DNA of 64,000 bases from Erysipelotrichaceae bacterium (lineage in GTDB: Bacteria > Bacillota_I > Bacilli_A > RFN20 > CAG-826), in NCBI GenBank assembly GCA_015058945.1, contig SVBF01000012.1, positions 1,763-65,762 on the forward strand, read 5' to 3'. Under the pieces are notes generated by a model that saw only the letters and a program-made list of their open reading frames with translations, did not search any database and was not told the origin of the DNA. Position 1 is the first letter of the stretch. Every line of letters starts with the position of its first letter. Positions 20,723 to 64,000 of this stretch are shown here, one piece after another. Both the position numbers and the translations under genes were made by a program.

Positions 20723-20729
20723 TTTGCCA

Positions 20730-35400: not shown

Positions 35401-35702
35401 CCATCGCCAAATACAATGCGAAGGATTTCAGCAACTACTACATTAATGGCGTGGCGTCTGATGTTAATGTGTATAAATCAGGGGATCTTACTTGTGTGTC
35501 CTTAAGTTTGACACAAGGATCAACAACCTTGGCAGTACATATGTTTTCATTCCTTGCATACGAACATCCAGACCTAGAAGCATTGGCTTATCAAATGAAA
35601 AACGGAGACACTGTCGTTCTTTTAACCAGTGTGGCGAGATATGGTGCAAATTACAGTCTTGATAACACGGAAGGGATAATCTCAGTCACCGAACCGGCTT
35701 AA
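32430..35702 (+). CDS. Collagen-like surface lipoprotein with a beta-rich middle region and Ig-like (Big_2) domains
   Basis: Lipobox LAAC, long Gly-X-Y tracts, [19 protein letters not shown] Big_2 motif. Confidence 0.85.
32492..33503 (+). repeat. Collagen Gly-X-Y repeats interrupted by two copies of a ~48-aa spacer domain
   Basis: GPQ/GEQ/GDK triplets; spacer copies start at 32916 and 33261 and share [17 protein letters not shown]. Confidence 0.9.
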
Positions 35703-35968: not shown

Positions 35969-38900
35969 TTAGTTTTGGGAATACAACCCAGCGAGCATGC
36001 CCATGTAGTGCGTACCCGCAGCGGCTTTGATGTAGACGTTCATGAAGTCGCCAGAGGCAAGCTTCGCCGCAAGCGTGGTTTCATCGGCGGCATCCAATTC
36101 CGCGACGGTATAGGCCTTGTTTTCGTCTTTGGTGTAACCCTTGCTGGAGTCGGTGGGGTCGTTCCAGGTGACGGGGTTATACATCGGATTGTTGCCGATG
36201 GAGTTGTGGGCGACCAAGTAGTTCACGTTATAGGCGTATCCCGCATAGGTCGCGTCATGCTTATAAGGCGCAAAGCCGTGGGAGGTGAGCGAAACGCCGT
36301 TATCATAGGCGGGGAAGGTGGCGCCGTGTCCACCGGCGGAAGATTCAAAGAACATCGCCTGGGAGACGCTGGCGGCCTCGAGGCCGGTAAAGAGGTCGCG
36401 ATAGTTCGCCCATAACGCAGTGCTATCCCTAAAGGCGGTCATATCCAAGTTGCCGTTGCGCAGAGTATTGTCACTGTTGTTGATGGTCATTCCGCCTTCG
36501 AGGGCACGTCCACGGACGGTGTCGTCGCCGGAAGTGCGGTTGCCGACGGAGTTGTTCATCGGAGAAGTGCCATTCATGCTTAGGGCAATGCAGTTGACAT
36601 AGGGGACATTATCGATGACCTTGACCGGGACTTTGTGTTCGCCTTTGGCAGCCGCGTTTTGCGCGAGCCAGCCTTCACCGGTCGCGGCTTGCGTCAGCAT
36701 GGCGAAGATCGCTGCCGCGCCATGGTGATAGAACCAAGGTTCAGTGCCTTTGACAAGGTTTTCAAAGAAGCAGTTTTCGGTCTTCACGTCGGCGACGAAT
36801 TTCGGTTGTTCCACGTCGTTTCGATACGCATAGCAGGCGTGGTGCTCGTCCAATAAGGCGATCGCGCCGCCAGCGCCGGTCATGTAGGAGTTGCTGATGT
36901 GGTTGTCTTCCGTGCCGTAGATATAGATCATCGAGTTATTCGAATCGAAGCTCTTGCAACGGTCGATGTTCATGGTTGTCTGCTCGTTTTGGTCCGTGGT
37001 GTGGGCTTGTGACATGAAGGTCATGAACGTGTTGTAGGAGATGATGTTTTGGAAATTGGCTTCCGTCGCCTGAATCTTGAAGGACATCAAACCACCCATT
37101 TCATCATCGTTGTTGCTGCGGCCACCATTGCCGATGAGGGTGAGGTTACGCATGTCGCAGACGCCGCCGTTGCTTTGGAGGACGTGATCGGTGTTGAAGC
37201 CGAACATGACGCCATGGCTACCGTCCTCGCCTTGATAATCCTGGAGACGATGCTCGCCATCTCCGGTGCCGTAATTGGTGATGGCGCTGCTATTGCCCGT
37301 GCCGAAGAAATAAACCTTCGAGACTTCACGGGAATCAATGACATGGTAGTTACCTTCGATGGCGAGCTCGTCGTTTTCTAGCGTGGAGCGGCCATAGCAG
37401 GTGAGGTCGTCGATCATCGAGTTGGCGAGGAGTTCGGCGCCCTCGGCAACGGTGATTTGTTCGACGCCACTGCGAGCGTTTTTCGCCGCAAGCCACGCCA
37501 TGAAGTCGTCGTTGTGGTTCTTGATGTATTCGTCGACGACCGCCTCAGTGTAGAAGTAGGAGGTGGGGAGGTCATCGTCGGTGATGATGATATCGTCCTG
37601 GATGAGGATGCGGCTAGGCGAATAGTTTTCCGCTAGGCCCATCGATGCGCGAAGCGCGGTCCAAGGATCGGCGTTGGACTCGTCGGAGTGGCGGATATTG
37701 CGGTTATCGAAGAGACAGAGCTCCGCGGCTTTATAGACGTTATAGCCGTCGACCGCCTCGAACTCGAATTGGACCGGGTTGGCACTGACGCCGGCACCAT
37801 ACTTGCTCTTGTCGCCGCTGATGGTGAAGCGGAACGTGTTGCCAACGGCGGCCTCTTTCAACTGCAACTTGCCATTGCCAAAGGTAAGGTAGTTGCCGAT
37901 GTCCGTGCTCGCCACCGCTTCGTATCCGGTGCCGACTTTCTTTTCCAGGCTATAGACGATGCGAGGGTTCTTCGTGGGGTTTTCGTCCATCGTCTCGTCG
38001 TCGTACGTCGTGCCGACGAGCTCGATATTGAAGGGGTTGTCGTCGCCGATTTTGAGCACGTCGACGCCGCCACTCTTGTTTTTGTAATAGGTGTTGCGAT
38101 CGGAGTCTTCGCCGGAAGTGATATTCCCAACCTCATCGAGCTTTTGGAGCCTGGTGTTGCGCTCGACGAGGAAATCGGCGACCAATCCGGTGAGTTCGAT
38201 GTCGTCGAGGACGTCATTGCTGACGGTGACGGAGATATAGGCCGAGGCGCCGCCGTCTTTAGAAGAGCAAACGATGGTGCAGGTGCCTTTCTTGTTGAGG
38301 GCGGTGATGCGGCCTTGGTCGCTGACGGAAGCGATGGAAGGATCGGTGCTGCTCCAAATGACGGAGGAATCATCCGCGTTATCGGGGGTGACGACGGCTT
38401 GGATATCGACGTATTCGCCCGAGGTGAGGTTGAGCTTGTCGACCTGGACGTTGTCCTTATCCAATAAGGTGATGCTTTGGACGCGGACGAGTTCGCGGAC
38501 GGAAAGATCCACGGTGGCCTTCACATCGGGGTAGGCGACGGAAGAGGCGGTGACGGTCGCATTGCCTGGGCCGACGGCGATCACCAAACCGGTGAGCGAA
38601 TCGACGCGGACGACGTTGGTGTCGGAAGAGGAGAACTGGACGTCTCTATTGGTCGCGTTTTCTGGCAAGGCCGTGGCGGTTAGCTGCAATTCGTCACCGA
38701 GGATCATCGAACGCTTTTTCTCCTCGACTTCCATGGTCACGGAAGTGACGGGGACTACCGCGGTGCCGACGGTGATGGGGAGGACCGCGTAGGCGGAGCC
38801 GCCGTCATTGGAACGGACGAACAAAGTCGCCGTGCCTTCGGCGGTGGCGGTGATGGTCGCGCCTTCTTCGGTCACCTCAAGGGTGACGGGCTGAACCTCA

Positions 38901-39556
38901 TCTTTGCCTTTGGGGGCCAACGACCAGGACAAGTAGGGGTTATCCGCATCTACGGGGAGGATTGAGGCGGTGACGTTCTCCTTCTGGCCGACGACGAGGT
39001 TTAGGCTCGTCGCGGACAAAGCGATGGACTCGATGAGTTTGGTTTCCTTGACGTTGAGGACGAGGGTCGCGAACTTCAAGGGGTTATCGAGCGATTGAGC
39101 GGTGATGGTGCAAACGCCTTCTTTTAAGGTGCGCACGACGCCGTTTTGGGAGACGGTCGCGACGGTGTTGTCGCTGGAAGCCCAGGACAAGGCCTTGTTT
39201 TCGGCTTCCGCGGGCAAGACGGTGGGGTTCAACTCGATGATCTCGCCGACTTTCGCGTCGCGGGAGGTCGTGGCAAAAGCGACGGAGCTCACGTGGATGG
39301 CTTCGGGGACGGAAGAGGAGGCGGGGACTTCCTGCGAACTCGGCTCGGAACTAGTCGTAGGAGCTTCCGAGCTGGTTTGGGATGGCTGTTCGGAACTTGG
39401 CTGCTCCGAGCTGGTCTGCGCGGGCTGTTCCGCAGAGGACGTGGCCTCGGGGGTAGATGGTTGGGTCGACGAGGCGACGGGGTTCACCTGTACGTTGCAA
39501 GCGGCAAGCCCAGCGAGCAATAAGGCGGACAAGGGGGCAAATAGAGTTTTCTTCAT
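35969..39556 (-). CDS. Large lipoprotein with four Big_2 Ig-like domains and a C-terminal beta-helix-like region
   Basis: Lipobox LAAC, S/E/P-rich linker, repeated V.P.DA.N..V.WSS.D..VA.V motifs; AAGGAG RBS. Confidence 0.85.
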   Translation of the reverse strand: MKKTLFAPLSALLLAGLAACNVQVNPVASSTQPSTPEATSSAEQPAQTSSEQPSSEQPSQTSSEAPTTSSEPSSQEVPASSSVPEAIHVSSVAFATTSRDAKVGEIIELNPTVLPAEAENKALSWASSDNTVATVSQNGVVRTLKEGVCTITAQSLDNPLKFATLVLNVKETKLIESIALSATSLNLVVGQKENVTASILPVDADNPYLSWSLAPKGKDEVQPVTLEVTEEGATITATAEGTATLFVRSNDGGSAYAVLPITVGTAVVPVTSVTMEVEEKKRSMILGDELQLTATALPENATNRDVQFSSSDTNVVRVDSLTGLVIAVGPGNATVTASSVAYPDVKATVDLSVRELVRVQSITLLDKDNVQVDKLNLTSGEYVDIQAVVTPDNADDSSVIWSSTDPSIASVSDQGRITALNKKGTCTIVCSSKDGGASAYISVTVSNDVLDDIELTGLVADFLVERNTRLQKLDEVGNITSGEDSDRNTYYKNKSGGVDVLKIGDDNPFNIELVGTTYDDETMDENPTKNPRIVYSLEKKVGTGYEAVASTDIGNYLTFGNGKLQLKEAAVGNTFRFTISGDKSKYGAGVSANPVQFEFEAVDGYNVYKAAELCLFDNRNIRHSDESNADPWTALRASMGLAENYSPSRILIQDDIIITDDDLPTSYFYTEAVVDEYIKNHNDDFMAWLAAKNARSGVEQITVAEGAELLANSMIDDLTCYGRSTLENDELAIEGNYHVIDSREVSKVYFFGTGNSSAITNYGTGDGEHRLQDYQGEDGSHGVMFGFNTDHVLQSNGGVCDMRNLTLIGNGGRSNNDDEMGGLMSFKIQATEANFQNIISYNTFMTFMSQAHTTDQNEQTTMNIDRCKSFDSNNSMIYIYGTEDNHISNSYMTGAGGAIALLDEHHACYAYRNDVEQPKFVADVKTENCFFENLVKGTEPWFYHHGAAAIFAMLTQAATGEGWLAQNAAAKGEHKVPVKVIDNVPYVNCIALSMNGTSPMNNSVGNRTSGDDTVRGRALEGGMTINNSDNTLRNGNLDMTAFRDSTALWANYRDLFTGLEAASVSQAMFFESSAGGHGATFPAYDNGVSLTSHGFAPYKHDATYAGYAYNVNYLVAHNSIGNNPMYNPVTWNDPTDSSKGYTKDENKAYTVAELDAADETTLAAKLASGDFMNVYIKAAAGTHYMGMLAGLYSQN

Positions 39557-39579
39557 TAGGTTCTCCTTCCTATTTATTA

Positions 39580-40179
39580 TCAAGATTGTTTGTAACCGCG
39601 GACCATGAAGCGGACGCGGCAGCTCACCTGGGAATTGTCGGTGGGCAGGATGGTGACGATGAAGGTGTTGAGGTTTTCGGTGCGCTGCTTGAACTCGAGC
39701 ACGCCGAGTTCGTTGATCGAGACGGTATCGACCTGGGAACCCGCGGAATCGGTGAGGGAGTAACGGAGGTTCTTCTTGGTCGCGTTATCCGGCAAGGCGT
39801 AGGCCCCGAGGTCAAAGTGCATCGGACCGTATTTCCACGAGGGGGAATCGCACACGGTGTTGAAGTCGCGGATCTGGACGACGTAATCGAAGCGCAACTT
39901 GTCGGTGAGGTTCCAAATGATGGTGTCGGTCTTTCCCGTTTCGGGGTCTATGTCTTCGTCGTTCGGCCTTGTGTATAGAGTATAGACACTTTGGGCGATG
40001 CTGGACCCTTCCGGGTAGGAAAGATGTTCCCCTTTGCCCAAATTCTCCGCCTCCTTAAGGACGATCTGGGTCACGAGTATCGTTTCATTGGCGATTTCCG
40101 CCTGGGCGCCGAGGAAGGCAACGAAGATGATCGCGACGAAATAGACGATGCCCACGAAGATGAAGGTGATCTTTTTCAT
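39580..40179 (-). CDS. Membrane-anchored hypothetical protein with a degenerate Ig-like motif
   Basis: N-terminal TM helix, ALPDNATKKNLRYS motif; part of the operon. Confidence 0.7.
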   Translation of the reverse strand: MKKITFIFVGIVYFVAIIFVAFLGAQAEIANETILVTQIVLKEAENLGKGEHLSYPEGSSIAQSVYTLYTRPNDEDIDPETGKTDTIIWNLTDKLRFDYVVQIRDFNTVCDSPSWKYGPMHFDLGAYALPDNATKKNLRYSLTDSAGSQVDTVSINELGVLEFKQRTENLNTFIVTILPTDNSQVSCRVRFMVRGYKQS

Positions 40180-47452: not shown

Positions 47453-48817
47453 ATGATTCGGTTTGCCCATTACCAACAAGACGATTACCAACGGGTCTGC
47501 GATTTTTTGATCCGGCTATATGAGAAGAGCGAACATCACCGTAATTGGAATTGGGCGAGGTTTGAATGGATGTATGGCCATCCCCTTACCACGGTGGAAT
47601 TCCTTGGCGATATGGGACTATGGTTCGATGGCGATAGCATCGTTGCCGCCGCGTTGATCGACATGTTCCTCGGCGAGGCTTTCATCGGTGCGTTGCCTGA
47701 GTATCAAACTCTATATCCCGAAGTGTTGAAATACGCCTTTGAACATCTAAAGGACGACCGAGGACTTGGGGTTACGATCAGCGATTTGGCTAATGAGGAA
47801 ATCAATGCCGCCTTGGCCCAAGGATTCTTCAAAACCGATGGTGAAGAAGCCGTTTATGAGATCGAACTAAGCAATGCTTTCGGCATTGTTTTGCCAGCGG
47901 GATTCATCATTGAGACATTCGATGCCCAAGAGCATGCAAAAGAGATCGAATGGCTGTTTTGGCAAGGTTTTGATCACGGCTCGAATTATGAAGAATTCCT
48001 GCAAAATAGGAGCGAAACCGTGCAAAAACGGCCTCATTTCAACAAATTTCTTTGCATTATCGCAAGAAACGAAAAAGACGAAATCGTGGCCAGTGCCTCA
48101 ACTTGGTATGACGAAAGAACCGACTATGCCTACCTCGAGCCCGTTTGCGTGATCCCCTCTTGCCGCGGCAAAGGAATCGGGAAAGCGGTGGTGCTCACCG
48201 CCTTAAACCACGCCCGTTTCCTCGGGGCGAAAAAGGCAATCGTCAATTCGGACCAAGTCTTTTATCAGCGTCTTGGTTTTAAAGAGAAGGGACGCTATCC
48301 CTTCTACTGGAAGAAGGAAGAGAAAACGGTAAACGGAGTCATCTATAAGCTGGAGAAATTATTAGGCAAGGGGAAGGGTGGCTATTCCTATCTCGCTAAA
48401 TGCGATGGGAAGGAATATGTCTTAAAGCAGATCCATCATGAGCCGTGCGAATATTATCAATTCGGTAACAAGATCGAGGCTGAGAAAAACGATTACCAAA
48501 GACTCTTGGATGCCGGCATCCGCATCCCGAAGATGATCGACGTCGATACCGAGAACGAAATCGTCCTCAAGGAATATATCGAGGGCGATGTGATTTCGGA
48601 TCTCATCGACCGAGGAGAATCGGTCGAGGCCTATATCCCTCAGGTGCGCGAGATGGCGCGCCTCGCCAAAGAAAAGGAACTCAACATCGATTATTACCCC
48701 ACGAACTTCGTGGTTCGGGACGAATTGCTCTATTACATCGATTACGAATGCAACCAATACATGGACGAATGGAGTCTGGACAATTGGGGCATCAAACATT
48801 GGTCTCCTGCGCGATAG
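47453..48817 (+). CDS. GNAT acetyltransferase fused to a protein-kinase-like domain
   Basis: VCVIPSCRGKGIGK and FYQRLGF (GNAT); LGKGKGG, VLK, DYYPTNF, YIDYE (kinase fold). Confidence 0.8.
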   Translation: MIRFAHYQQDDYQRVCDFLIRLYEKSEHHRNWNWARFEWMYGHPLTTVEFLGDMGLWFDGDSIVAAALIDMFLGEAFIGALPEYQTLYPEVLKYAFEHLKDDRGLGVTISDLANEEINAALAQGFFKTDGEEAVYEIELSNAFGIVLPAGFIIETFDAQEHAKEIEWLFWQGFDHGSNYEEFLQNRSETVQKRPHFNKFLCIIARNEKDEIVASASTWYDERTDYAYLEPVCVIPSCRGKGIGKAVVLTALNHARFLGAKKAIVNSDQVFYQRLGFKEKGRYPFYWKKEEKTVNGVIYKLEKLLGKGKGGYSYLAKCDGKEYVLKQIHHEPCEYYQFGNKIEAEKNDYQRLLDAGIRIPKMIDVDTENEIVLKEYIEGDVISDLIDRGESVEAYIPQVREMARLAKEKELNIDYYPTNFVVRDELLYYIDYECNQYMDEWSLDNWGIKHWSPAR

Positions 48818-48900
48818 CGCGCATATAGTGGAATTGTTTTTGATCTTGTGGCACGTTTGTGGCGGGCCATGACTATCATATTGTCGTCGGGAAAAAAACG

Positions 48901-49956
48901 ATGAGACGCAGCGAAAGAAACGAACTCTACAAATGCAACACCAAGGGTTTGATCGACCTCATGAACGACCCGAGGTATATGAATAACAAGAACAACCAGT
49001 TTGGCGCCGTGCTTGGCTACCTCGCCCGCCATGGGATGTCCAACGGAAACTCCAAAGGCGAATTCCTTGATTTGGTCTACGCCGCGAGGAACGAATTCAT
49101 CGCCCAAGCCGCGAAACAACATGTCGGCGCCAAGGGCGAAGTCGCCTATGACCAACTCGGCCCCGGCGATGCCAAACTCAAGGCCTTTATCCGCGATCCG
49201 CTTCCGATTTTGCAACGCGAGATGAAGGGCTTTTCCGAACGCAAAGAGAACTTCGCCGCCGACGAAGATCCGGACATCGTCGATTATTACCGTCGTCTCA
49301 AGACCAACGCGGACATTCTTTCCATCGAACTGGGATCCGATTTCGACCAGACGCGCAATCGTCCGGAAAACACCGAACTCGTGGATGTGATGAACCGCCT
49401 CAACAAAAAGATCCCTGAGAACGCGACCACTCCCGAAGAGGCGTTAAAGAAAGCCAACTCCGGCTTCTTCGGCACCTTATTCCGCCGCCAATCCAAGGAA
49501 TTCACCGCCTTTAAAACCGCCTTTGATCAGTTCCGCGACCCGACCAAAGTCCTCAATAGCGGAAACGTCGGCAATCTCGAAGAGAAGACCACGGCCTACC
49601 TCAAGCACCTCAACCCCGCATTCGAATACAAGAAAGGCATGGATAAGGAAGCGTTCCTTGCCAACCTTTCCAAGGGACAGAAGGCCCGCGCCGAGTTCGC
49701 GCTTAACGTCCTCGACTCCATCGCCGAGCATAAAGAGATGAAGCCGTACATGGAAAACGTCGATAACGCCATCAAGGGCAAACCGGTCAAAGAAATCGCC
49801 GAACCTAAGGCGGAGGTCAACGATCCGAAGATTCAAGGCCAATTCCAAAACCAAATCGCCGTCGAACTCGGCGAGGCTAAGGAGAGCAACGACATCGTCA
49901 AAGAAGAACCCGCCGAGGAAAAAGTGGCGGAAAACGGACCGGAGATGTCCAACTAA
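48901..49956 (+). CDS. Hypothetical protein, paralog family member A (acidic C-terminal tail)
   Basis: Long ORF with host-like codon usage; motifs shared with 52711-54207 and 55584-56726. Confidence 0.8.
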   Translation: MRRSERNELYKCNTKGLIDLMNDPRYMNNKNNQFGAVLGYLARHGMSNGNSKGEFLDLVYAARNEFIAQAAKQHVGAKGEVAYDQLGPGDAKLKAFIRDPLPILQREMKGFSERKENFAADEDPDIVDYYRRLKTNADILSIELGSDFDQTRNRPENTELVDVMNRLNKKIPENATTPEEALKKANSGFFGTLFRRQSKEFTAFKTAFDQFRDPTKVLNSGNVGNLEEKTTAYLKHLNPAFEYKKGMDKEAFLANLSKGQKARAEFALNVLDSIAEHKEMKPYMENVDNAIKGKPVKEIAEPKAEVNDPKIQGQFQNQIAVELGEAKESNDIVKEEPAEEKVAENGPEMSN

Positions 49957-49963
49957 GCAAACG

Positions 49964-50926
49964 ATGAACAAAAAGATAATGAAATTCGGCAAAGTGCTCG
50001 CGCCGTTACTCGCGTTATCTTTTCTTTCTTCCTGCGTTCATCGTCCCGAGACGAAGAACGTCTATATCGCTTGGAGCGACAGGCAAAACAGTTATAGCTT
50101 TATCTCCACGTTAAAGACCGTGACCTCCATCGGCTGCAACCCCGTCGTCTTGGACATGGTTCGGTCCAACGATTTGTCTTATGGCGAGGACGGAACGTTG
50201 ATCGATGCGGTCGACGAACATCGCATCCTCTTGCCCGAACCGGCAAGAAAGGTGAAGGCCAGCGCCTGGCGGCATTCTAACGTCAAAGACATCATGAAGG
50301 ACGTGAAATACGTGATCTTCCCCGGCGGCTCGGACATTTGTCCCACACTCCGAAGAACGGAAGGGGAGTGGCATGGCATCGAAGGGGATACCGATTACGC
50401 CCCGGAACGGGACGTCTCCGACTATCTGCTGATGTCCTATTGTCTCGACCACAGCATCCCCGTGTTCGCGATTTGCCGCGGCATGCAGATGTTATCCGTC
50501 GTCTCCGGCGCGACGATGATCGACGATATCCCAACTTATTTCGCTTCGTTAGGAAAAGGCGACAAGGAAACTCATCGCGACGCGGAGAAAACCGTCTTCG
50601 CCGCCCATGACGTCGACGTGACCGACGACTCCTCATTGCTTTATAAGATCACCAAGCAAACCAAACTGGAGAAAGTGCCGTCTTGGCATCACCAGGGCGT
50701 TCTTTCCGTGGAAGGCACCCCATTGTCCGTTACGGCCAAGACGACCACCGACGGCGTTTCGATCATCGAAGCGGTGGAACGGAAGGACCTCCCCTTTTGC
50801 CTCGGCGTCCAATTCCACCCCGAAGTCGCGGTGCGTAAGGCGGTGGACAAAGAAGCGGACGCCGGGAATTATATGGACCAACAAACCGCCGCATCGTTCT
50901 TCCGTGCCTTGGTCGAGCCCAAATAA
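49964..50926 (+). CDS. Peptidase C26 / gamma-glutamyl-gamma-aminobutyrate hydrolase family lipoprotein
   Basis: Lipobox LSSC, PGGSD, AICRGMQ, SWHHQG, GVQFHPE. Confidence 0.88.
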   Translation: MNKKIMKFGKVLAPLLALSFLSSCVHRPETKNVYIAWSDRQNSYSFISTLKTVTSIGCNPVVLDMVRSNDLSYGEDGTLIDAVDEHRILLPEPARKVKASAWRHSNVKDIMKDVKYVIFPGGSDICPTLRRTEGEWHGIEGDTDYAPERDVSDYLLMSYCLDHSIPVFAICRGMQMLSVVSGATMIDDIPTYFASLGKGDKETHRDAEKTVFAAHDVDVTDDSSLLYKITKQTKLEKVPSWHHQGVLSVEGTPLSVTAKTTTDGVSIIEAVERKDLPFCLGVQFHPEVAVRKAVDKEADAGNYMDQQTAASFFRALVEPK

Positions 50927-51074
50927 TCAAAACTATTTTCATATATTTAAATACGCATAAACGCACGCGTGCATAATATCGAATTCGCGAAAACCTGCGT
51001 TTACTATGAAAATTCGCGAAAATTTAGATACTTTGTATCTACATAAGATTTTTAAAGATTTTTGCAAAAAATGC

Positions 51075-51102
51075 TTGCACACTTTTTCGATGCGAGTATA
51101 GT
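51075..51102 (+). promoter_or_regulatory. Sigma-A-type promoter driving the candidate giant ncRNA
   Basis: TTGCAC-N16-TATAGT, same spacing as the tRNA and T-box promoters in this window; AT-rich upstream region. Confidence 0.75.
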
Positions 51103-51107
51103 TATGT

Positions 51108-52565
51108 GTTCCGCAGGGAACGCCAAGCCGCAAGGTAAGCGAAACTGTGGTAACCACCTTAACATAGTTAAGGTGAGGGGAATGTGTGATGCCCCTCGGG
51201 AACTTCGGTTCCTCAAAGGTCTACTGCCTCGAAAGAGACAAAGGCTGGTCCTGGACTAACCCATGGCCCGCTAAGGAATCGCTCGCCCTTCGGTAAACCG
51301 ATGAATGGAGCTGGAAAGGAAGAAAGAGGTCCTGCGATGGATCCTCGAGGACTCCTTCCCTAAGGGCTCCCGCGCAGAACGGGAACGCCACCGCCTCTCG
51401 TCCCAGGCGGCTAGTGAAACTAGAGAGAATGGGAGATGCGGACAGCCTTGGAAAAGGAACATCCGCAAGAAGGGTTAAGCGAACTTCGTCGCGTCCCTTC
51501 CCAGGATTCGCCCCCTGGCTCGTGAACGAGAAAACGCGGCGATGCCGTCAAACCTTCCTTGCGATAGGGGGGATGCTGCGGCGAAGGGTAACCCCCTGGA
51601 GGATTCCCGCCTCCCACTGGTAAACCAGAACAAACAGGGCCGACGGTGGACTTGGTTCGTCCCAAGGCAAACCGTCCAAGGCGAAGGCGCGAGCCTCCGC
51701 ACGGAACATCCCATCCTTCAGATGCGCTCTGAGAACATGGGTCCCAAGCTAACCTACTCCCGCAAGGGCATGGCCAACTTGGTCAAGGGGCTGCGGCGAA
51801 AGCCGATGTCCCCGACGGAATTCGAGCCGTCGCGTGGTAGAACCACGGCAATTCCATCGAATGGGTCGTGAGATCCGGAGAGGGCAAATCCCTCAGACCC
51901 CGCAGAAAGGCCGCGGTAAACCCGAAAATCTCTGCTCCCTCCGCTGCTATGGCCTAGTAAGCCCTCTACGCGGTACGGTAGTTCCCCGGGCATAAGCCTG
52001 CGGAACGATGGTTGTCCCGCCATTGCGTGAAACGCTGATCATGGGAATGTGAACGCGTCGGTCTTCTTCGGAAGGCAGGGGCGTCCAGAAACGCCTGGGA
52101 ATTCATAACCAGGTGGTGCCCAAAGAGGCCCGGCGCGCGGTAAACCGCTGGAAAGGCCTCTTCCCTAGGGAGTAATTCCTAGGCGAGTGAGGAGACCTTG
52201 GTCCCCTCGGGAAGTCGTTCCACCCCTCAATCGTGAAGTTGGAACGTGGCTTGGACACTTAGGCGGACGAAGATGTAACCTAAGGTTCCGGTCGAGACCG
52301 ACGGTCGTCTGTTGACGTTGCGTCGGCCTAGGAAGATAAGAGCTCTTCTCAGCGGTACACCGCAGAACCAAAAACTTGTTCCCGAATCCCTCCTGCGTTA
52401 GGGCCAGGCGGTGGTAAGGAACGAATCCCGTAAGGGATGTGGTTGGTTGGAATCTCCCACGAGGTAAACCTCAAATACGAAATGTCCCGGCGATATTGGA
52501 GCTAGACAAGCCGTTAAACCGGAAAGCCGAGTGACACCACGCAGCGATGCGTGGCGTTTTCTTTT
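51108..52565 (+). ncRNA. Candidate giant, highly structured non-coding RNA (~1.46 kb) of unknown class
   Basis: No credible ORF; bounded by a promoter and a terminator; dozens of hairpins, ten with GNRA loops, two with cUUCGg loops, five with GGTAAACC; G-U pairs fit a + strand RNA. Confidence 0.8.
52534..52565 (+). terminator. Intrinsic terminator ending the candidate ncRNA
   Basis: CCACGCA-GCGA-TGCGTGG followed by CGTTTTCTTTT. Confidence 0.8.
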
Positions 52566-52710
52566 ATACAGTAGGTTTTCGCAAGTCTCATCGGAGTGCT
52601 TAAAGACGATAAGCGGCAACATATTCGCGAAAAAGTTGCTTTAGTGTGACACATCTGTTGCGTCGGATGCCTTATGTTATTATCAGTCGAACGAAAAAGG
52701 AGGCGACATT

Positions 52711-54207
52711 ATGCCAGTTTACGAGCCCTTTACCAAAGAAGAAAAAAGAGACATCATCGCGCGTCACCATTACCTCGTCGATGAGATGAACAAGACCCTC
52801 GGCGGCGTTTTGGAATACGAGGACGAAAGAATCCTGCAGAAGCTGGAAGACCCGAAGGAGGTCGCCGCCTATCGTTTGCATGAGGAAAACAAGCTGAGAA
52901 ACGAGAAGCGTCAGAGAATCATGGACGACCTCGGTTTCCGATTTGGCACCCAGGGCATGGACCACAATCCTTTGAACCGCCACATCAAATATCTCATGAA
53001 GCTTGGCGACGATCCCAAGGACACGGAATATAACGAAAAGTTATACCAGGAATATCTCCGGAATCCCGAGAAAATCATTTACCGTGAGTATAAGAAGATT
53101 TTGGAGCTCAATCCGCAGCAGCTTTACGATCTAGGCAACGACAAGCAGAAGATCGCCGAGTTCTATATGGATAACACGGGCCTATGCGAGGGCGCGTTCG
53201 TCGTGAACTCGGTCATCACCAACAGCAACGCCAAGGCGACCAAGGCGTTACGTAACGGCCTTGCTTCGATGGCTAAGCCGATCGAATCGCTCAACGAAAT
53301 CGGCCACACGCTCAAGAACAATGGCATCGATAGCTTCGCTTGCCCGACCCTCACCCAAGAGCAGACTTTGCTCGCGATGACGAACCAGACCCTATTCTTA
53401 GGTAATCCCAACCCCGTGTTGACGGAGGTCATGAACTGCAACCTCATCCCGATCGAAACCCCGCATGACTATTTCCAAAAGTTCGTCGATTATGGCATCG
53501 ACATAAACCAGCCGAAGTTCTTCACCAAATACAAAGCGGTCAAAACCGATCCGGAGACGGGCAACAAAAGGGAAGTGGGCTTCCATGAACTCTTTGATGA
53601 CGACGACCCCAACGTCCGCATCGAAATCCGCAGCAAGGACGAGCAGGAGGAAATCCTCGCCGTCAATCGCGCCTACCAAGACAAATACGCGGAAAAGTTC
53701 CAAGCCCGCATCGCCACGAAGCTCAACCAGATGAACTTCGACATCAACCAGCTCGAGGAAGAGCGTAAGGGTAGTTGGGTGGAACGTAATGTTCTCCATT
53801 CCACGTCCCGCGAATGGACGGAATTCATCGGCGCCTTCAAGGACTATAACAACCCCGAGCATCCCAATTACCTCCGCAAGGACATCCTTAAGCCCAAAGC
53901 CCAGGCCTACATGAACCGTAAACACCGCCAAGGCTATGCGACGGTGGAGGACATGAAGGGCACTTCGCGTAGCCGTGGTACATTGGCTCAGGCCGTCATC
54001 GATACCTGCGATGAGTTCGAGGAGCAAAAGAACCAGATCACCGAGGACATCGAGATCGCGATCAATACCGGGTTCAATGGCAAGGTCGGGCTTATCATCA
54101 ACGCCAAAGAAGTCGACGACAACGACAACGTGGCGGAACCGGAGGAAGAGAAATCCAACGAGATCAAAAACGAAATCGTTAAAGATCAAGGGTCGCTCGA
54201 GATGTAG
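52711..54207 (+). CDS. Hypothetical protein, paralog family member B (acidic C-terminal tail)
   Basis: AAGGAGG RBS, extended -10 upstream, terminator downstream; shares the C-terminal motif with A and C. Confidence 0.85.
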   Translation: MPVYEPFTKEEKRDIIARHHYLVDEMNKTLGGVLEYEDERILQKLEDPKEVAAYRLHEENKLRNEKRQRIMDDLGFRFGTQGMDHNPLNRHIKYLMKLGDDPKDTEYNEKLYQEYLRNPEKIIYREYKKILELNPQQLYDLGNDKQKIAEFYMDNTGLCEGAFVVNSVITNSNAKATKALRNGLASMAKPIESLNEIGHTLKNNGIDSFACPTLTQEQTLLAMTNQTLFLGNPNPVLTEVMNCNLIPIETPHDYFQKFVDYGIDINQPKFFTKYKAVKTDPETGNKREVGFHELFDDDDPNVRIEIRSKDEQEEILAVNRAYQDKYAEKFQARIATKLNQMNFDINQLEEERKGSWVERNVLHSTSREWTEFIGAFKDYNNPEHPNYLRKDILKPKAQAYMNRKHRQGYATVEDMKGTSRSRGTLAQAVIDTCDEFEEQKNQITEDIEIAINTGFNGKVGLIINAKEVDDNDNVAEPEEEKSNEIKNEIVKDQGSLEM

Positions 54208-57493: not shown

Positions 57494-57794
57494 CAAACGC
57501 CTGCGGATTAAGTAAGGACTTTACAATTGTAATCCCCATTAGGCAAATTATGGAAACCGCCGTGTTCAAAAAGGCGGGTTTTCCTTAATATGGCTTTCCT
57601 ATTATTTTTTAAATAATATTTTAGGGATTTTCGCTTGGTTTCGCGGTGAGTCGAAAGTGAAAAAAGCCGTTTTAGTCCAAGGCGTTCGACCCTCCTGAAT
57701 TAACCCTTGTTGCACATTTGTGGCATTTTTAAATATAGACTTCAGTCAGATATGCTGGAGAAGACTCTTCTCCCATACCGCCGCCCTAAACGAC

Positions 57795-59387
57795 ATGAAG
57801 AACAAGACAGCCATCACAATCCTCGCCGCCTTAGCCATCTCCTCGATGCCTTTTATGGCTGCGTGCAGCGGTTCGACTACCATCGTCGGGATTCATATGA
57901 CCAACCCTGAGACGATGACCGTCTGCTATGGCAATTTCTCCTATGAGGGAATCGGCGTCACCGTCGATTTCCGCGACGGAGGTTCGACCGAGATCCCCCT
58001 TACCGAGGACATGGTCCCGGAAGTGGAACGGCTGAAGTTTTTCAAAATCGGCGAGCAGAACATCGAGATCGTCTATCGCGGCAAGTTCACGACCACCATG
58101 CCCGTGAACGTCACGTTAAATCAATTTAAGGATTCGTACGCGCTAGTCGGGTATGAGTGCGTGTATGACGGCTCGCCCCATGCCGTCGGATTAAACCAAG
58201 AACTACCCGAAGGCGCGGTCATCACTTATCCCTATGGCAACATCTTCACCAACGCGGGCGTCTATGAAGTCGTCGGCGTCATGAGCAAGAACGGCTATGA
58301 GTCGAAGACCCTCACGACGACGCTCACCATCCTACCCGCCGAGCGTGACGCCTCAGGCATCGTCTTTGAGGACACCACGGTGGTCTATAACGGCGAAATG
58401 CGCTCCATCGAGGCGACCAACGTCCCCGAGGGCGTGGAAGTCACTTATGACGCCTACGACTATGAACAAGCCATTCGCATCAACAAAGTCGTCAACGCCG
58501 GCAAGTATCGCATCGTCGCCCATTTCAACGACACCAGCACCAACTACACAAAGATTCCCGATAAGGAAGCCGTCCTAACCATCGAGAAAGCCGATTATGA
58601 CGTCTCGGACATCAAGCTTCCCGACGCGATCAAGGAATACGATGGCCAGGATTACGTCGCCCAGATCACCAACAAAGGTCGTCTCCCCACCGGCGTAAGC
58701 GTCAATTACACCTATTACGATGAGCAGGGGAACAAGGTCAACAGCAACGCCAAAGTCGGCAATTACACCATCGTCGCCTCCTTCGTGGGCGGCGACCTCG
58801 CCAACTACAACCCCATCGAACCGCTCACGGCGACGCTTTCCGTCTCAAAGCGCGTCATCAAGATCAAAGACAAAGTCACCTTTGAGGGCAAAACGGTCAA
58901 CTTCGACGAGAACGTGACCCATTCTTTGGCCATCGCCGGGACGCTCCCCGACACCGTGAAAGTCACCTATGAAAACAACGACCAGGTCTATGCCGGCGAA
59001 TACGAGGTGAAGGCTAAGTTCTCCGCCGTCAGCGAAAACGAGAAGGTGGACCTCGAGGAGCTGACCGCCTATTTGATCATCAACCGCGTGCGCCGCTCGG
59101 TCCCGATGTATAACGAGACCACCAAGGCCTACGACCGTCCTTTCGCCGCAAGCGACATCAAGATCAAAGACGGCGTCGTCACCATCGAAGGCTATCAGAC
59201 CGACATCTTCAAGCTGACTTCGGTCGTCTTCTCCGACTTGCTGACCAACGAAACCGTCGCCCCCGAAAACCTCGTCAGCGGCACCACCTACAAATACATC
59301 GTCACCTTTGAATATATCGACGAGTCGGTTGGGAGCAGTGTGATTTTGTCCCAGGAATCGGACAACATCACCTATGTGGCGGAGTGA
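57795..59387 (+). CDS. Surface lipoprotein with repeated MBG-like Ig domains
   Basis: Lipobox MAAC; repeated YDG...LP.GV.V.Y...NAG.Y.V.A.F units. Confidence 0.8.
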   Translation: MKNKTAITILAALAISSMPFMAACSGSTTIVGIHMTNPETMTVCYGNFSYEGIGVTVDFRDGGSTEIPLTEDMVPEVERLKFFKIGEQNIEIVYRGKFTTTMPVNVTLNQFKDSYALVGYECVYDGSPHAVGLNQELPEGAVITYPYGNIFTNAGVYEVVGVMSKNGYESKTLTTTLTILPAERDASGIVFEDTTVVYNGEMRSIEATNVPEGVEVTYDAYDYEQAIRINKVVNAGKYRIVAHFNDTSTNYTKIPDKEAVLTIEKADYDVSDIKLPDAIKEYDGQDYVAQITNKGRLPTGVSVNYTYYDEQGNKVNSNAKVGNYTIVASFVGGDLANYNPIEPLTATLSVSKRVIKIKDKVTFEGKTVNFDENVTHSLAIAGTLPDTVKVTYENNDQVYAGEYEVKAKFSAVSENEKVDLEELTAYLIINRVRRSVPMYNETTKAYDRPFAASDIKIKDGVVTIEGYQTDIFKLTSVVFSDLLTNETVAPENLVSGTTYKYIVTFEYIDESVGSSVILSQESDNITYVAE

Positions 59388-59391
59388 GAAG

Positions 59392-61764
59392 ATGAAGAAG
59401 CGCTACATCGCATACATCACTTACGGCGTCTCCTTAGCCTTAGCCGCCGCCTTAATGTTGGTGCTCTTCTTTTTGGGCGTCTTTCATCATTACACCGACA
59501 CGCTCGACGTCGGCAACATGATTGCCTTCCTGATCTTCTTCTTCGTGACTTTCTCCCTCGTCGCGACGGTCCTTTTCTCCGCCCGTTTCATTAGCGGCGT
59601 CGTGCAGGAAACCCTCTTCATCGTGGCCTCGCTCCTCCTCATCAGCGAGATTTTGTCCTTTCTCCTGTTCGCGCTCATCGACTGCGGTTTCGAATTCGCG
59701 CTCATCGACTGGCTCGGCGCCCTAGGACGCATGCCCGTCGGCTGGCAATACTATTTGACGTTGCTCTTCATCTTCGTCGGCCTTTTCGCGATTTACGCCG
59801 CCTTCATCAACAAGAACTTCATCGCCACTATCCTCGGCAAAGGTACGGGCGAGCTCAAACGCGTCAAAGGTTCCAACCTCGAGAATTCGCGCTGGTTGAC
59901 CGACCGCGAGAAGAAAACCCTCTTCAAGTTCTATTCCTATAGCCAACTCGGCGAGGTGACCAAAGACGGCATCCCCGTCCACGCCCAACTCGACCGCAAG
60001 GGCAAAGACATGGAGGTCGGCTTCAATGCGCCGTGCCACTCCATCGTCATCGGTTCCACCGGCTCTGGTAAGACAACGACCTTCGTCTCGCCGATGATCC
60101 AGCTCCTCGGCGCCACCAAGGCTGGGTCCTCGATGGTCATCACCGACCCCAAAGGCGAGCTTTTCCAGCTCCATTCCAAATACCTGAGGGAGCGGGGATA
60201 CGACGTGAAGGTCATCGACTTACGCGACACCTATTCCTCCTACCGCTGGAACCCCCTCGACGGCATTTGGGACAACTTCGAACTCTATCGCAACGCCCAT
60301 AAAATGGCCTTCAAGCGCGACGACGACATCATGCAGGCGGGCCTTAAGGTCGACAAAGAGGACGAGAACCTCCCCGTCGGCACGGAATGGTACGAATTCC
60401 AGGGCAAGGCCTACACCGATTACAAGCGCCTCATCAACGCGGTCAAGATCTTCAAGAAGCGCACCTATGACGAAATCTATGAGGACCTCAACGACTTGGT
60501 CACCGTCTTGATCCCGGTCGAGAACGAGAAGGATCCCCTATGGGAAAAGGGCGCCCGCTCCATCACCTTGGCGGTCCTTTTGGCCATGCTCGAGGACGCC
60601 GAGGAAGAAGGCAGCACGATGTCCAAAGCCAAGTTCAACTTCTTCAACTTGGCCAAGATCCTCCAAAACTCCAACGACGACTACAAGCAACTCCGCGAAT
60701 ACTTCAAGGGCAGGAGTTCCCTCTCTCGCGCCTATTCCTTATCCAAACAGGTCTGCGACGCCGCCCAGTCGACCCGCGCCTCCTACATGTCCATCGTCTA
60801 CGACAAACTCACTTTGTTCAACGACGCCGGCATCTGCGCCCTCACGAGTTCCTCCGACTTCACCGCCAAGTCGCTTTCGGACCATCCGACCGCCCTCTTC
60901 CTCAAGATCCCCGACGAGAAAGACACGCGCCATAACCTCGCGGCCATCTTCATCTTGAACATCTACAAGACCTTGATTAAGGTCGCCTCCGCGACGCCGG
61001 ACCTCACCTTGCCGCGCAACGTCTACTTCATCATGGACGAGTTCGGCAACATGCCCAAGATCAGCAAGTTCGACAAATTCATCACCGTCGGCCGTTCGCG
61101 CAAGATCTGGTTCACCATGATCGTTCAGTCCTACGCTCAGCTCAATAATGTCTACGGCGACACCGTCGCGGACATCATCAAGGGCAACTGCGGCATCAAG
61201 ATGTTCATCGGTTCCAACGACATGTCGACCTGCAAAGAATACAGCGAGCTTTGCGGCAACATCACCATCGCGAGCACCTCGACCTCCGGCAGCGCCCATA
61301 GCGAGACCAACTTCTCGACCTCCTACCAGGTCCGCCCGTTGATCTACCCGTCCGAGCTGCAGCGTCTCAACCATCCCGGCGACATCGGCCATGGCATCGT
61401 CGTCACGTTCGGCAACTATCCGCTTAAGACATACTTCACCCCCTCGTTCAAGGTACCTCTTTACGTCACGGGCGAGATGGATCAGTCCGACATCGCCGAG
61501 CGCGGCTTCAACGAGCGCGCGGTCTTCTATGACATCCGCGAACGCAATAGGCGCCTCGAGAAGAAAACCGCCGAGGCGGCGGCCGAAAAGGAAAAGCAAA
61601 CCGAGAAGAAGCAGAAGCAGAGCGAGCTCTCCTCCCTCACCCAGGCGGAGATCCTCTCCCTGTTCATGGAATACCAGAAGAGCAACCCCGGTCTCACCCT
61701 CAAGGACTTCATCAGCATGATCGAAGACGGCAAGATCGAGCTCGGAAAGGACCCGAAACAATGA
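59392..61764 (+). CDS. VirD4/TraG-like type IV coupling protein
   Basis: N-terminal TM segments, GSTGSGKT, TDPKGEL, WNPL, FIMDEFGNM, GRSR, QSYAQL..VYG. Confidence 0.88.
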   Translation: MKKRYIAYITYGVSLALAAALMLVLFFLGVFHHYTDTLDVGNMIAFLIFFFVTFSLVATVLFSARFISGVVQETLFIVASLLLISEILSFLLFALIDCGFEFALIDWLGALGRMPVGWQYYLTLLFIFVGLFAIYAAFINKNFIATILGKGTGELKRVKGSNLENSRWLTDREKKTLFKFYSYSQLGEVTKDGIPVHAQLDRKGKDMEVGFNAPCHSIVIGSTGSGKTTTFVSPMIQLLGATKAGSSMVITDPKGELFQLHSKYLRERGYDVKVIDLRDTYSSYRWNPLDGIWDNFELYRNAHKMAFKRDDDIMQAGLKVDKEDENLPVGTEWYEFQGKAYTDYKRLINAVKIFKKRTYDEIYEDLNDLVTVLIPVENEKDPLWEKGARSITLAVLLAMLEDAEEEGSTMSKAKFNFFNLAKILQNSNDDYKQLREYFKGRSSLSRAYSLSKQVCDAAQSTRASYMSIVYDKLTLFNDAGICALTSSSDFTAKSLSDHPTALFLKIPDEKDTRHNLAAIFILNIYKTLIKVASATPDLTLPRNVYFIMDEFGNMPKISKFDKFITVGRSRKIWFTMIVQSYAQLNNVYGDTVADIIKGNCGIKMFIGSNDMSTCKEYSELCGNITIASTSTSGSAHSETNFSTSYQVRPLIYPSELQRLNHPGDIGHGIVVTFGNYPLKTYFTPSFKVPLYVTGEMDQSDIAERGFNERAVFYDIRERNRRLEKKTAEAAAEKEKQTEKKQKQSELSSLTQAEILSLFMEYQKSNPGLTLKDFISMIEDGKIELGKDPKQ

Positions 61765-64000
61765 GAGCGAAGTGGAGAAGACGCGGCTTGACGTTCCTCA
61801 CGGCCCTGATGGCTGGCTTTATGATGAGCCAGGGGCTCCCGGAACTCGCCTCCGACCTCAGTGAGATCGTCGTGTTCGCCGATAGCGGCACCAACGTCGT
61901 CCGTTTTGGTTCGACTCAGGTCGAGTGCAACGATTCCAACCTCGTCTACGTCGACCTTTTGGCCACCGGCACCCCGGGCAACACCGTCACCGCCACCTAT
62001 CGCACCAGCAGCGGCACCGCCATCGAGAACGTCGACTATGCGGGCGTCTATAACACCATCTCGCTTAGACTCGGCACCGACGGCAAAGCCAAATACACCA
62101 TTTCCATCAAGGGCCTTAACGACGCCTCCGGCCGCGAGAAACTCCGCGTCTATGACTCCGAAGGCGTCTATGGCCGTTATTTCAACCTGCACCTCCTCGC
62201 GGCGGAAAATGCCTCCATCGGCGACGAGAAGCAGTGCAAGTGCTATTTGTCCTACAACTACAAAGTCTCCGCCACGACCCACGTCATGGATGGCCTTTTG
62301 GGACGTGAGGTCGCTTACCTTAACGACTACAAGAACATGATTTCCAAATACCACAAAGGCGACAACGACATCAGTGGTCAGGAATCGTGGAGGACTTGGA
62401 AGGAAGGCGTCTCCTTCGATAACGAGACCACCAGGCACTGGGTCAATACCTACATCAACAACGGTTTCGCCGAAGCCTATGGCACCTATATCCTCAAGAA
62501 CATCGACGACGATCACGTCCATTCCGAAAACAACATCTACATGATCTCCGGCAACAAGGAGCTCATGCAGAAGTACGAGAAAAAGAAATACATCTCCGGC
62601 GCCTCGCTCTATTATGAGATCGAGCCGTGCAGAAGTGGCGGTTACCGCCTCGACGGCCGCGCGATGTACTACATCTCCCAAAACAAGAACCCGTGGAAGC
62701 AAGACAGCGATCTCGTCGACTTGGAAGAAATGCACCATCGCGGTCCGAACCAGCGCGTCTATTGGATTCAGGAGAGCGATGCGTGGTACTCCAGGAAAAA
62801 CACGGTTTACGACACCGTCTTCTGGAAGACCGATCCCTATAACGGCGTCTTGGATTACGGCCTATGCATTTTCAACAACAACGGTTCGTGGGACCGCGAA
62901 GTCCATGACATCTGGCTCTTCCTCACCCTCCTCGACAAGAAGGCCCCATCGATCGTCAACCAGTGGTCCGAATTCAACCCGCAGACCAACTCGGTCCGCA
63001 TCTACCTGCGCTTCGACGAGCCCGTTTATAGCTCCAAGAAGAACGACCTTTTGGTCCGCATCAACAACAAGTCGACCAACTATTACGCGACCTACGTCGA
63101 GGGCAACTACGGCGACACCCTCGTTTACGAGCTTCCCGAATCCGCGACGCGCAACAAGAAGATCAATTCGATCAAATACGAGCTCCCGACCGAAGACATC
63201 GGCGACCTCGCCTATAACCTCGATGGCTACAAAATCGTCCGCAACAACCTCGTCAAAGGCACAGATGTGGAGCGCGACACCGTCATCTCCGGCGGCTACA
63301 TCGACCTCGCCATCCCGCAGCTCGCCGTCGACCAGGGTTCCTCCACAACTCCCCATGGCGTCTACAACGTCATGATCTCGGCCAACGGCAACGGCTCGTC
63401 CACCTTCGACACCGGCACCGTCTACTATTCCTGGGACAAGAACGAGAGCATCCAAAACCCGCTCGAACCCTCTTCTTACGCCAACACGCACGTGCTGACT
63501 TCCGAGGAGGCCGGTTCCTTTGGCGTCACCTTGATGAAGAACGAGAGCCTCGGCATCGATAGCGGGGATTATTACCTCCATGCCCTCGCCGTTTCCAGAT
63601 ACGGTCTGACCGCCCATGATACCTACGGACCATACCGCTTAGATGGCGATGCACCGGAAATCAGCCAAATCTCGCCTTCCGTCGACAACCTCCAATCCAA
63701 AGGCTTCCGCCTGCAGATCAAGGATAAGGCGCTCGGCACGGCGATGAAGTACGTCGCCATGAACGTGAAGTACGTCGACGAGGAAGGCAAAGAACAAGTC
63801 GGAAGCATCACCCTCGCGAATAACGGGGTGATCGAGCCCACTCTCGCGGGCATCGTCTCCTCCAGCTATGACGGTGGCCTCACGACCTACATCTATCGTT
63901 CCAACATCGACGAGACCGACACGAGCATCCCGCTAGATAACTTCACGCTCGGCCTCATGGGGTCGCGTCCCCAGCTCGCGGTGGAAGTGTGGTTCGAAGT
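61761..64000 (+). CDS. Large secreted/surface protein with an N-terminal Calx-beta-like domain (runs off the window edge)
   Basis: ATG overlaps the VirD4 stop (ATGA); manual translation MRAKWRRRGLTFLTALMAGFMM...VTATYRTSSGTAIENVDY stays open to the window end; missing from the ORF track because it is truncated. Confidence 0.82.
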   Translation, partial: MRAKWRRRGLTFLTALMAGFMMSQGLPELASDLSEIVVFADSGTNVVRFGSTQVECNDSNLVYVDLLATGTPGNTVTATYRTSSGTAIENVDYAGVYNTISLRLGTDGKAKYTISIKGLNDASGREKLRVYDSEGVYGRYFNLHLLAAENASIGDEKQCKCYLSYNYKVSATTHVMDGLLGREVAYLNDYKNMISKYHKGDNDISGQESWRTWKEGVSFDNETTRHWVNTYINNGFAEAYGTYILKNIDDDHVHSENNIYMISGNKELMQKYEKKKYISGASLYYEIEPCRSGGYRLDGRAMYYISQNKNPWKQDSDLVDLEEMHHRGPNQRVYWIQESDAWYSRKNTVYDTVFWKTDPYNGVLDYGLCIFNNNGSWDREVHDIWLFLTLLDKKAPSIVNQWSEFNPQTNSVRIYLRFDEPVYSSKKNDLLVRINNKSTNYYATYVEGNYGDTLVYELPESATRNKKINSIKYELPTEDIGDLAYNLDGYKIVRNNLVKGTDVERDTVISGGYIDLAIPQLAVDQGSSTTPHGVYNVMISANGNGSSTFDTGTVYYSWDKNESIQNPLEPSSYANTHVLTSEEAGSFGVTLMKNESLGIDSGDYYLHALAVSRYGLTAHDTYGPYRLDGDAPEISQISPSVDNLQSKGFRLQIKDKALGTAMKYVAMNVKYVDEEGKEQVGSITLANNGVIEPTLAGIVSSSYDGGLTTYIYRSNIDETDTSIPLDNFTLGLMGSRPQLAVEVWFE

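Follow-up and report, generated by a model that had tools for sequence, protein, structure and literature searches.

A UAAA-loop mini-hairpin reused along a candidate kilobase-sized structured RNA of an Erysipelotrichaceae bacterium

Introduction

The large ornate RNAs OLE, ROOL and GOLLD are long, hairpin-dense and protein-free molecules of unknown function, encountered in Firmicutes and in rumen samples; their architecture depends on terminal loops and adenosines, with A-minor contacts, kissing loops and an A-A helix as the connecting elements (PMC12286853). A stretch of 64,000 nucleotides (nt) from an Erysipelotrichaceae bacterium (assembly GCA_015058945.1, contig SVBF01000012.1, positions 1,763 to 65,762), here called the window and numbered from its first letter, contains a candidate structured non-coding RNA of about 1.45 kb that gives no match to a described family, and in which one 8-mer, GGTAAACC, recurs in short hairpins. 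At about 1.46 kb, the candidate RNA is roughly twice the length of GOLLD. As a kind of molecule, it comes closest to the large ornate RNAs, and is set apart from them by its length and by the reuse of a single mini-hairpin.

Repetition of a short motif is familiar from another group of RNAs. Sponge RNAs of the CsrB/RsmZ type, about 100-400 nt long, present a GGA in loops that follow one another at intervals of 10-30 nt. These share with the candidate RNA the principle of one short motif repeated in the hairpin loops of a non-coding RNA, and a preliminary description of this DNA, made from its letters and a list of its open reading frames (ORFs), drew the analogy with CsrB. The analogy is weak in detail. 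The loop in the candidate RNA is UAAA and has no GGA, its nine exact and near-exact sites lie 32-295 nt apart in 1461 nt, many close-set GGA loops are not seen, the CsrB/Rsm families of Rfam give no match, and there is no CsrA-like ORF among the window ORFs scanned.

Loops of similar sequence are also described in riboswitches. U-ANA is given as the consensus of the 4-nt T-loop receptor in the flavin mononucleotide (FMN) and cobalamin riboswitches, where the end bases pair non-canonically and an adenosine is donated (bioRxiv 10.1101/2022.12.26.521914). In the solved cobalamin riboswitch of B. subtilis, a UAAA loop is a hybrid of T-loop and tetraloop that accepts an inserted base (PMC7367189).

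The repeated motif

The 8-mer GGTAAACC occurs five times in the window, at 51292, 51619, 51915, 52139 and 52463. The + strand carries all of them, within one ORF-poor stretch of 1.46 kb, and no further exact copy is present on either strand of the window. An exact search thus returns the positions that the preliminary description had listed, with their spacings of 327, 296, 224 and 324 nt. In 100 shuffles of the window that preserve dinucleotide composition, the 8-mer occurred 1.12 times on average and four times at most; none of the 100 reached five. Given the first-order composition of the stretch itself, 0.044 copies are expected in 1461 nt against the five observed, and the probability of at least five is 1.3e-9, which becomes 8.5e-5 once all 65,536 8-mers are allowed for. 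Every other 8-mer is found three times at most in the candidate RNA. Nor is the motif a common word of the genomic background covered, a check proposed beforehand: the remainder of the window has none, and 96 kb of related loci have two, both on the opposite strand.

A looser pattern, GGTA-N0-2-ACC, has 15 matches in the window, nine of which fall in the candidate RNA, all nine on the + strand. In the 96 kb of eight related loci, it has 22 matches, on both strands. The nine sites in the RNA (51149, 51292, 51587, 51619, 51836, 51915, 52139, 52354 and 52463) form a family, and eight of them are hairpin tips in the minimum free energy (MFE) structure. In addition to the five exact copies, the family has four near-copies with loops of 3 to 5 nt, all on the + strand. 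The first, GUGG-UAA-CCAC (51147-51157), is found by the looser pattern and is no hairpin tip in the MFE structure. The second, GGGG-UAA-CCCC (51585-51595), is found by both the pattern and structure prediction. The third, CGUGG-UAGAA-CCACG (51833-51847, with GGTAGAACC at 51836), is found by the pattern and the MFE structure and was missing from the variants listed in the preliminary description, while the variants that were listed are all present where they had been placed. The fourth, GCGG-UACA-CCGC (52352-52363), is found by the pattern, by structure prediction and in the alignment of 12-mers described below. As a class, one-mismatch variants of the 8-mer are not enriched window-wide (40 found against 38 expected).

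It had also been suggested that the RNA is built from about five diverged modules of some 300 nt, and this finds no support. Short-word self-BLAST gives no direct repeat apart from the motif itself (best match 56 nt at 66% identity, E = 2.4). Flanks of 20, 40 and 100 nt were aligned with the motif as anchor, and did not surpass segments aligned from random anchors (z from -1.5 to +1.9). Once the four near-copies are added, the spacing of the sites becomes irregular, ranging from 32 to 295 nt.

The mini-hairpin

The repeated unit is a mini-hairpin of 12 nt, in which a UAAA loop sits on two constant G-C pairs, followed outwards by two pairs that vary. The stem under the UAAA loop comprises exactly 4 base pairs (bp), with mismatches at its end, in four of the five exact copies. 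These are, all on the + strand, copy 1 (UCGG-UAAA-CCGA, 51290-51301), copy 2 (CUGG-UAAA-CCAG, 51617-51628), copy 4 (GCGG-UAAA-CCGC, 52137-52148) and copy 5 (GAGG-UAAA-CCUC, 52461-52472), with ensemble pair probabilities of 0.58, 0.94, 0.49 and 0.99, respectively. In copy 3 (51913-51924, + strand) the 8-mer is the same and the outer bases GC..CG are unpaired; the predicted fold favours a 3-bp stem with a UAAAC loop (CGG-UAAAC-CCG), and the standard register has a probability of 0.15. Copy 4 lies, in the MFE structure, within a 6x6 internal loop that a 6-bp helix closes. It can pair with the variant at 52354, which accounts for the values of 0.49.

The alignment of six 12-mers, the five copies and the UACA variant, has 22 of its 24 stem cells paired. 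The inner two G-C pairs are constant, and each outer pair occurs in three pair types, with both sides changing. This bears out the earlier observation that the motif caps short stems with differing yet complementary outer pairs; the pairs that had been named (TC..GA, CT..AG, GC..GC and GA..TC) are correct for copies 1, 2, 4 and 5, and copy 3 does not pair in that register. The covariation score, which counts changes between copies inside one molecule and not between species, is 0.467 and was reached by none of 500 shuffles, while slid registers pair in at most 56% of cells.

The surroundings of the hairpin are of uneven composition. Over the 12 nt 5' of it, C makes up 50%, against 28% overall; over the 12 nt 3' of it, A makes up 42%, against 24% overall. 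Since C-rich and A-rich flanks cannot lengthen the stem, the hairpin is set apart from its surroundings.

The host RNA

All motif copies lie in the candidate structured non-coding RNA, which is predicted to span 51105-52565 on the + strand (1461 nt), on the basis of an ORF scan, folding and relatives. Its putative 5' boundary follows a pair of promoter-like hexamers, TTGCAC and TATAGT with a 16-nt spacer (51075-51102, + strand), which were read by eye. The pair has 8 of 12 matches, below the threshold of the scan, and sits in an AT-rich stretch just 5' of the first stable hairpin; near 51105, the GC content rises from 0.34 to between 0.54 and about 0.58. The putative 3' end is a hairpin resembling an intrinsic terminator, with seven pairs, a GCGA loop and a T-run (52537-52565, + strand), found in a terminator scan.

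The region falls in the intergenic gap between the end of a peptidase C26 gene at 50926 and the start of a gene for a protein of 498 amino acids (aa) at 52711. The longest ORF in the gap has 109 aa, and the longest stop-to-stop frame of the region has 130 codons in the standard code. A gene with a reassigned stop codon was considered and rejected: with one stop reassigned, frames reach 177-291 codons, none of them a convincing frame of gene length. Four ORFs of the region had no match in Pfam. No conserved reading frame is seen, as the ORFs do not exceed 109 aa and relatives match across two to three successive frames.

The + strand MFE structure has 48 hairpins, 24 of which are tetraloops (7 GNRA, 2 UNCG and 4 UAAA). 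The - strand has 35 hairpins, with no GNRA or UNCG loop. A count from the letters alone of GNRA loops on 3-bp stems gives 13 on the + strand and 3 on the - strand. The mean folding z-score is -1.3 in the region, compared with -0.5 and -0.3 in its coding flanks. The ORF limits, the hairpin density and the terminator indicate an apparently non-coding and highly structured transcript, in line with the candidate RNA of the preliminary description.

Searches of databases and literature did not lead to a known family. At gathering thresholds, Rfam 15 recognises only a T-box and a transfer RNA (tRNA) in the whole window, both outside the region. At E <= 10, positions 50800-52800 give four sub-threshold matches, the best with 31.4 bits against a threshold of 44 and located in the AT-rich promoter stretch. 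The families covered without a match include OLE, ROOL, GOLLD, raiA, HEARO, ribosomal RNA, RNase P, group I and group II introns, and CsrB/Rsm. The candidate RNA thus differs from OLE, ROOL and GOLLD in having no match to their covariance models at gathering thresholds or at E <= 10; it also reuses one identical hairpin five times, which is not described for them in the excerpted source (PMC12286853). A distant-mode blastn search with the RNA had no match among phage and plasmid records. A full-text literature search for the 8-mer gave, among the matches listed, only eukaryotic or viral contexts (siRNA or miRNA studies, i.e., of small interfering RNAs or microRNAs, and others) and no bacterial RNA. 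Within the collection searched, the literature on new large RNAs of bacteria or of the rumen has no account of the candidate RNA.

Relatives and conservation

Because an 11-mer box flanks both the RNA and the gene of the 498-aa protein, this downstream protein, a member of a small metagenomic family of 20 clusters, was used as the query of a genome scan. The scan gave eight loci (L001-L008) with 50-59% identity, in rumen metagenome-assembled genomes (MAGs) labelled Erysipelotrichaceae or Bacilli. The RNA was not found beside the homologue in any of the eight (nhmmer, E <= 1e-3); with filters off, the best match had E = 0.02 and 6 bits and lay inside a coding gene. These loci have no long ORF-free gap adjoining the gene, no + strand copy of the motif, and no match to an Rfam family for the RNA at gathering thresholds.

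Protein collections were searched with the 109-aa ORF (51542-51871) as a probe. It falls in a near-identical cluster of seven variants (94-100% identity) on 24 contigs, all of which are 1431 nt or shorter, while the cluster of the neighbouring gene reaches 817 kb. Contigs of this size could be assembled transcripts of about the predicted length, or could result from fragmented assembly. Another spurious ORF of the region is on a 302-kb contig, and one of the ten other spurious ORFs of the region is present in the protein collection.

The contigs bear on one explanation of the repeats, namely that they are processing or modification signals, at which an endonuclease or a modifying enzyme cuts or marks the transcript at five or more hairpins. 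Identical short hairpins repeated on one strand, hundreds of nucleotides apart, would suit such a role, and nothing in the sequence itself contradicts it. The public contigs that hold the internal spurious ORF reach 1393-1431 nt, near the full predicted transcript, so that the RNA would be whole if these are transcript assemblies. Conserved blocks run well past the hairpins, and no adjacent nuclease gene was recognised when the neighbours were compared with Pfam and NCBIfam. Processing signals are very unlikely.

An exhaustive search of 1.84 billion representatives returned one divergent relative, P0036 (48 of 92 residues identical), and a fragment from the same species. A profile search added P0039 and P0040, and all three relatives come from related lineages. 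Mapped onto the window, P0036 takes two frames and P0039 three. P0040 matches the 109-aa ORF over only about 19% of its own length; its ends align to the window in another frame and, read by eye, it needs at least two frames. Similarity that outlasts changes of frame points to conservation at the level of nucleotides, not of protein. The 109-aa "hypothetical protein" and the ORF at 51305-51478 are probably spurious gene calls inside the presumed RNA. Both ORFs are found in public protein collections, where one is called a "hypothetical protein" and the 109-aa ORF has a JGI name. A 56-aa fragment of a spurious ORF (P0035) shares its 90% cluster with a 420-aa dicarboxylate symporter of Bacillus salipaludis, which looks like a clustering artefact.

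The relatives were compared as peptides, i.e., by codon, with third positions unreadable, and the comparison covers copies 2 and 3 and the sites at 51836 and 51587. The codons of copy 2 (51619) specify the same four residues in P0036 and P0040, those of copy 3 (51915) the same three residues in P0036 and P0039, and three codons of the 51836 site are unchanged in P0036 and P0039; in none of the relatives was any of these changed. The codons of the 51587 site are kept in P0040 and changed in P0036. Conservation of the loop in homologues, a check proposed in advance, is therefore indicated at codon level for copies 2 and 3, whose codons are unchanged in divergent peptides that are otherwise about 52% identical. 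The conserved blocks that hold the sites alternate with variable blocks, and other blocks are equally conserved.

Eight fixed positions in five places, strand-specificity, the location at hairpin tips and at least partial conservation together exclude chance as the origin of the repetition, and make a function of the motif at the RNA level likely. The least likely of the explanations considered is a non-functional one, in which the region is a decayed gene or other DNA and the repeats derive from composition or from an old internal duplication. There is no Rfam match, the RNA is absent at the syntenic position in the eight related genomes, the folding z-scores are no more than modestly below zero, without a difference between the strands, and tandem paralogues of the neighbouring family in L006 and L007 are about as long as the region, all of which would suit decay. 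A search by tblastn of neighbours and paralogues against the region had a best E of 0.11, and self-BLAST gave no internal duplication. The count of the motif is far above composition, the relatives remain similar across frame shifts with conserved and variable blocks alternating, structural tetraloops occur on one strand only, and the region is bracketed by a terminator and a promoter-like site.

A possible role in docking

The five GGUAAACC sites and the four looser GG-UA(N)A-CC sites may be a structural knob that is reused for RNA-RNA docking. This reading is tentative, with a probability of about 0.4. The UAAA loop would close by a non-canonical U-A pair on the G-C clamp and so expose its adenosines. 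The knobs would then make long-range RNA-RNA contacts, within the RNA or between RNA copies, resembling the adenosine-rich terminal loops that tie other large ornate RNAs together. There is a structural reason for placing a G-C clamp beneath such a loop, by analogy with the T-arm of tRNA. Docking is favoured by the location of all five exact and all nine looser copies on the + strand inside the RNA. The sequence U-A-N-A of the riboswitch receptor is found at six sites, five with UAAA and one with UACA.

Compared with other loop families, the motif fits none exactly. T-loops are defined as motifs of five nucleotides, YGNRA or UUCRA; with four nucleotides and A at position 2, the loops here fall outside this definition. 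No matching set of partner T-loops for the UAAA loops was identified in the RNA. Two predicted hairpins, at 51332-51339 and 51559-51566, share the loop UGCGAU, which agrees with the T-loop consensus UGNRA in its first five bases. These hairpins may be partners of the UAAA loops, though two occurrences do not amount to an enrichment. GNRA tetraloops that dock into helical or 11-nt receptors are similar in that a four-nucleotide loop on a G-C clamp ends in stacked adenosines and recurs in a large RNA. The UAAA loop differs in its first base, which is U and so outside the G-N-R-A definition, and in its fixed closing pairs.

Several points weigh against RNA-RNA docking. Firstly, the two strands cannot be told apart by their folding z-scores, and the MFE of the - strand is the lower one by a small margin. 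Secondly, the comparison of homologues is at the peptide level, and reaches copies 2 and 3 and not copies 1, 4 and 5. Thirdly, the riboswitch receptor loops have six nucleotides, two of them extra bulged bases that form an auxiliary helix, whereas the loops here have four. Fourthly, there is no second repeated element that could be the receptor, and no other k-mer comes near the enrichment of the motif. Finally, the two closing pairs are identical in all copies, as a single trans-acting reader would impose, while the closing pairs of GNRA loops in the same RNA vary.

This last point leads to one of the explanations offered in the preliminary description, namely repeated docking sites for one sequence-specific RNA-binding protein or other trans-acting factor, five to nine copies of which the RNA would array or sequester, as a scaffold or a sponge. 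Recognition by the factor would involve the UAAA loop with its GG/CC clamp, and perhaps also the C-rich and A-rich single strands on either side. Such a reader would fit an exact 8-mer in which two stem pairs are identical five times while the outer pairs vary, the uniform 4-bp stem and common flank composition, the exposure of the sites as predicted hairpin tips, all on the presumed transcribed + strand, and the contrast with the GNRA loops, whose closing pairs are not fixed. Against this stand the low density of the sites, which at about one per 160-300 nt are much more thinly spread than in known sponges, and the near-copy loops of 3 to 5 nt, which a strict reader would tolerate poorly. Among 52 window ORFs compared with Pfam, no dedicated RNA-binding domain (KH, S1, RRM, CsrA or Hfq) was recognised, with a DEAD-box helicase-like protein (3879-5045) and a PhoH-like ATPase (15666-16457) left out of account as readers.

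The genes next to the RNA do not supply a reader either. Pfam and NCBIfam have no family for the 365-aa, 498-aa and 380-aa proteins, and Pfam finds no RNA-binding domain in the small ORFs. For the 365-aa protein, the ESM Atlas offers weak leads at most (best score 0.75, template-modelling score <= 0.28), and the AlphaFold model of the 498-aa protein (pLDDT, a model confidence score, 75.6) has no match in the PDB at E <= 0.001. Homologues of the 498-aa gene occur in eight related genomes without the RNA beside them. Given this, and since no neighbour shows an RNA-binding domain or a fold that can be recognised, the neighbouring proteins are unpromising as partners of the RNA. Protein docking is less likely than not and a close second; the precedents for the loop sequence, together with the lack of a reader in sight, place RNA-RNA docking narrowly ahead of it.

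It is a more speculative and rather doubtful proposition that a kilobase RNA larger than any described ornate class undergoes higher-order assembly through homotypic UAAA-UAAA bridges between its copies, or holds a fixed array of five to nine copies of one protein. In a symmetric UAAA/UAAA meeting, U-A pairs would form at the ends and A-A pairs in the middle. Homotypic bridging would account for the same sequence at every site.

Neighbouring genes and surroundings

The window is chromosomal, as judged from its genes for RF1, SecA, RF2, UvrB and FolD. In three of the eight related loci (L001, L004 and L008), a gene with an acetyltransferase domain is directly upstream of the 498-aa gene. Compared with these loci, the window (positions 47453-52711) therefore carries an extra block, consisting of the gene of the 365-aa protein, the C26 peptidase gene and the RNA. 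The C26 peptidase gene is found elsewhere in L002 and L008. The 498-aa family forms four tandem paralogues in two Erysipelotrichaceae MAGs (L006, 170-7515, and L007, 164-7515), and the 365-aa protein of the window has weak similarity to one of these paralogues. The possibility that the region is a decayed paralogue of the family was rejected: with 20 family members, 6 paralogues and 13 window proteins as queries, tblastn against 50927-52710 had a best E of 0.11.

The box that flanks the RNA and the 498-aa gene is the 11-mer ATTCGCGAAAA, with the palindromic core TTCGCGAA. It occurs exactly three times in the window, at 50983-50993 and 51012-51022, upstream of the promoter-like site of the RNA, and at 52623-52633, between the terminator of the RNA and the 498-aa gene. 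The box was not found upstream of the homologues of this gene in the eight loci. From its placement, ATTCGCGAAAA could be an operator common to both genes; alternatively, the RNA gene could be an insertion with this repeat on either side. Upstream of the 498-aa gene, at about 52645-52662 in the window and about 50-60 nt before the start of the match in L001-L008, all nine members of the family have TGTGRCAC, 5 nt, TKGCR and then a TATAA-like box. The TGTGRCAC element resembles a sigma-54 promoter of the -24/-12 type, with GA in place of GG in four of the nine by eye.

Further from the RNA, a T-box leader (20727-20975, 97.5 bits) is directly 5' of an ABC transporter operon (20975-23533) with a NIL-domain ATPase, a permease and an NlpA lipoprotein, resembling a system for methionine uptake; a tRNA gene (23623-23695) follows the operon. 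Two very large predicted surface proteins are encoded at 32418-35702 and 35969-39583, one with collagen triple-helix repeats and Big_2 domains, and the other with Big_2 and invasin-like domains. A coupling protein of type IV secretion (TraG/VirD4-like) is encoded at 59374-61764, flanked by proteins with MBG and Calx-beta domains (57720-63998), so that a conjugative element may lie about 5 kb downstream of the RNA.

Significance

As judged from the sequences available, the known distribution of the candidate RNA is narrow. If real, it would be an unusually long structured RNA, not described before, from uncultured rumen bacteria resembling Erysipelotrichaceae. Public "hypothetical proteins" such as the 109-aa ORF would then be flagged as spurious calls inside an RNA gene. 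A single 12-nt hairpin reused five to nine times would provide an experimental handle on the folding and assembly of large RNAs. Two questions would thereby become testable: whether natural large RNAs fold or assemble by means of repeated identical connectors, and what reads these connectors.

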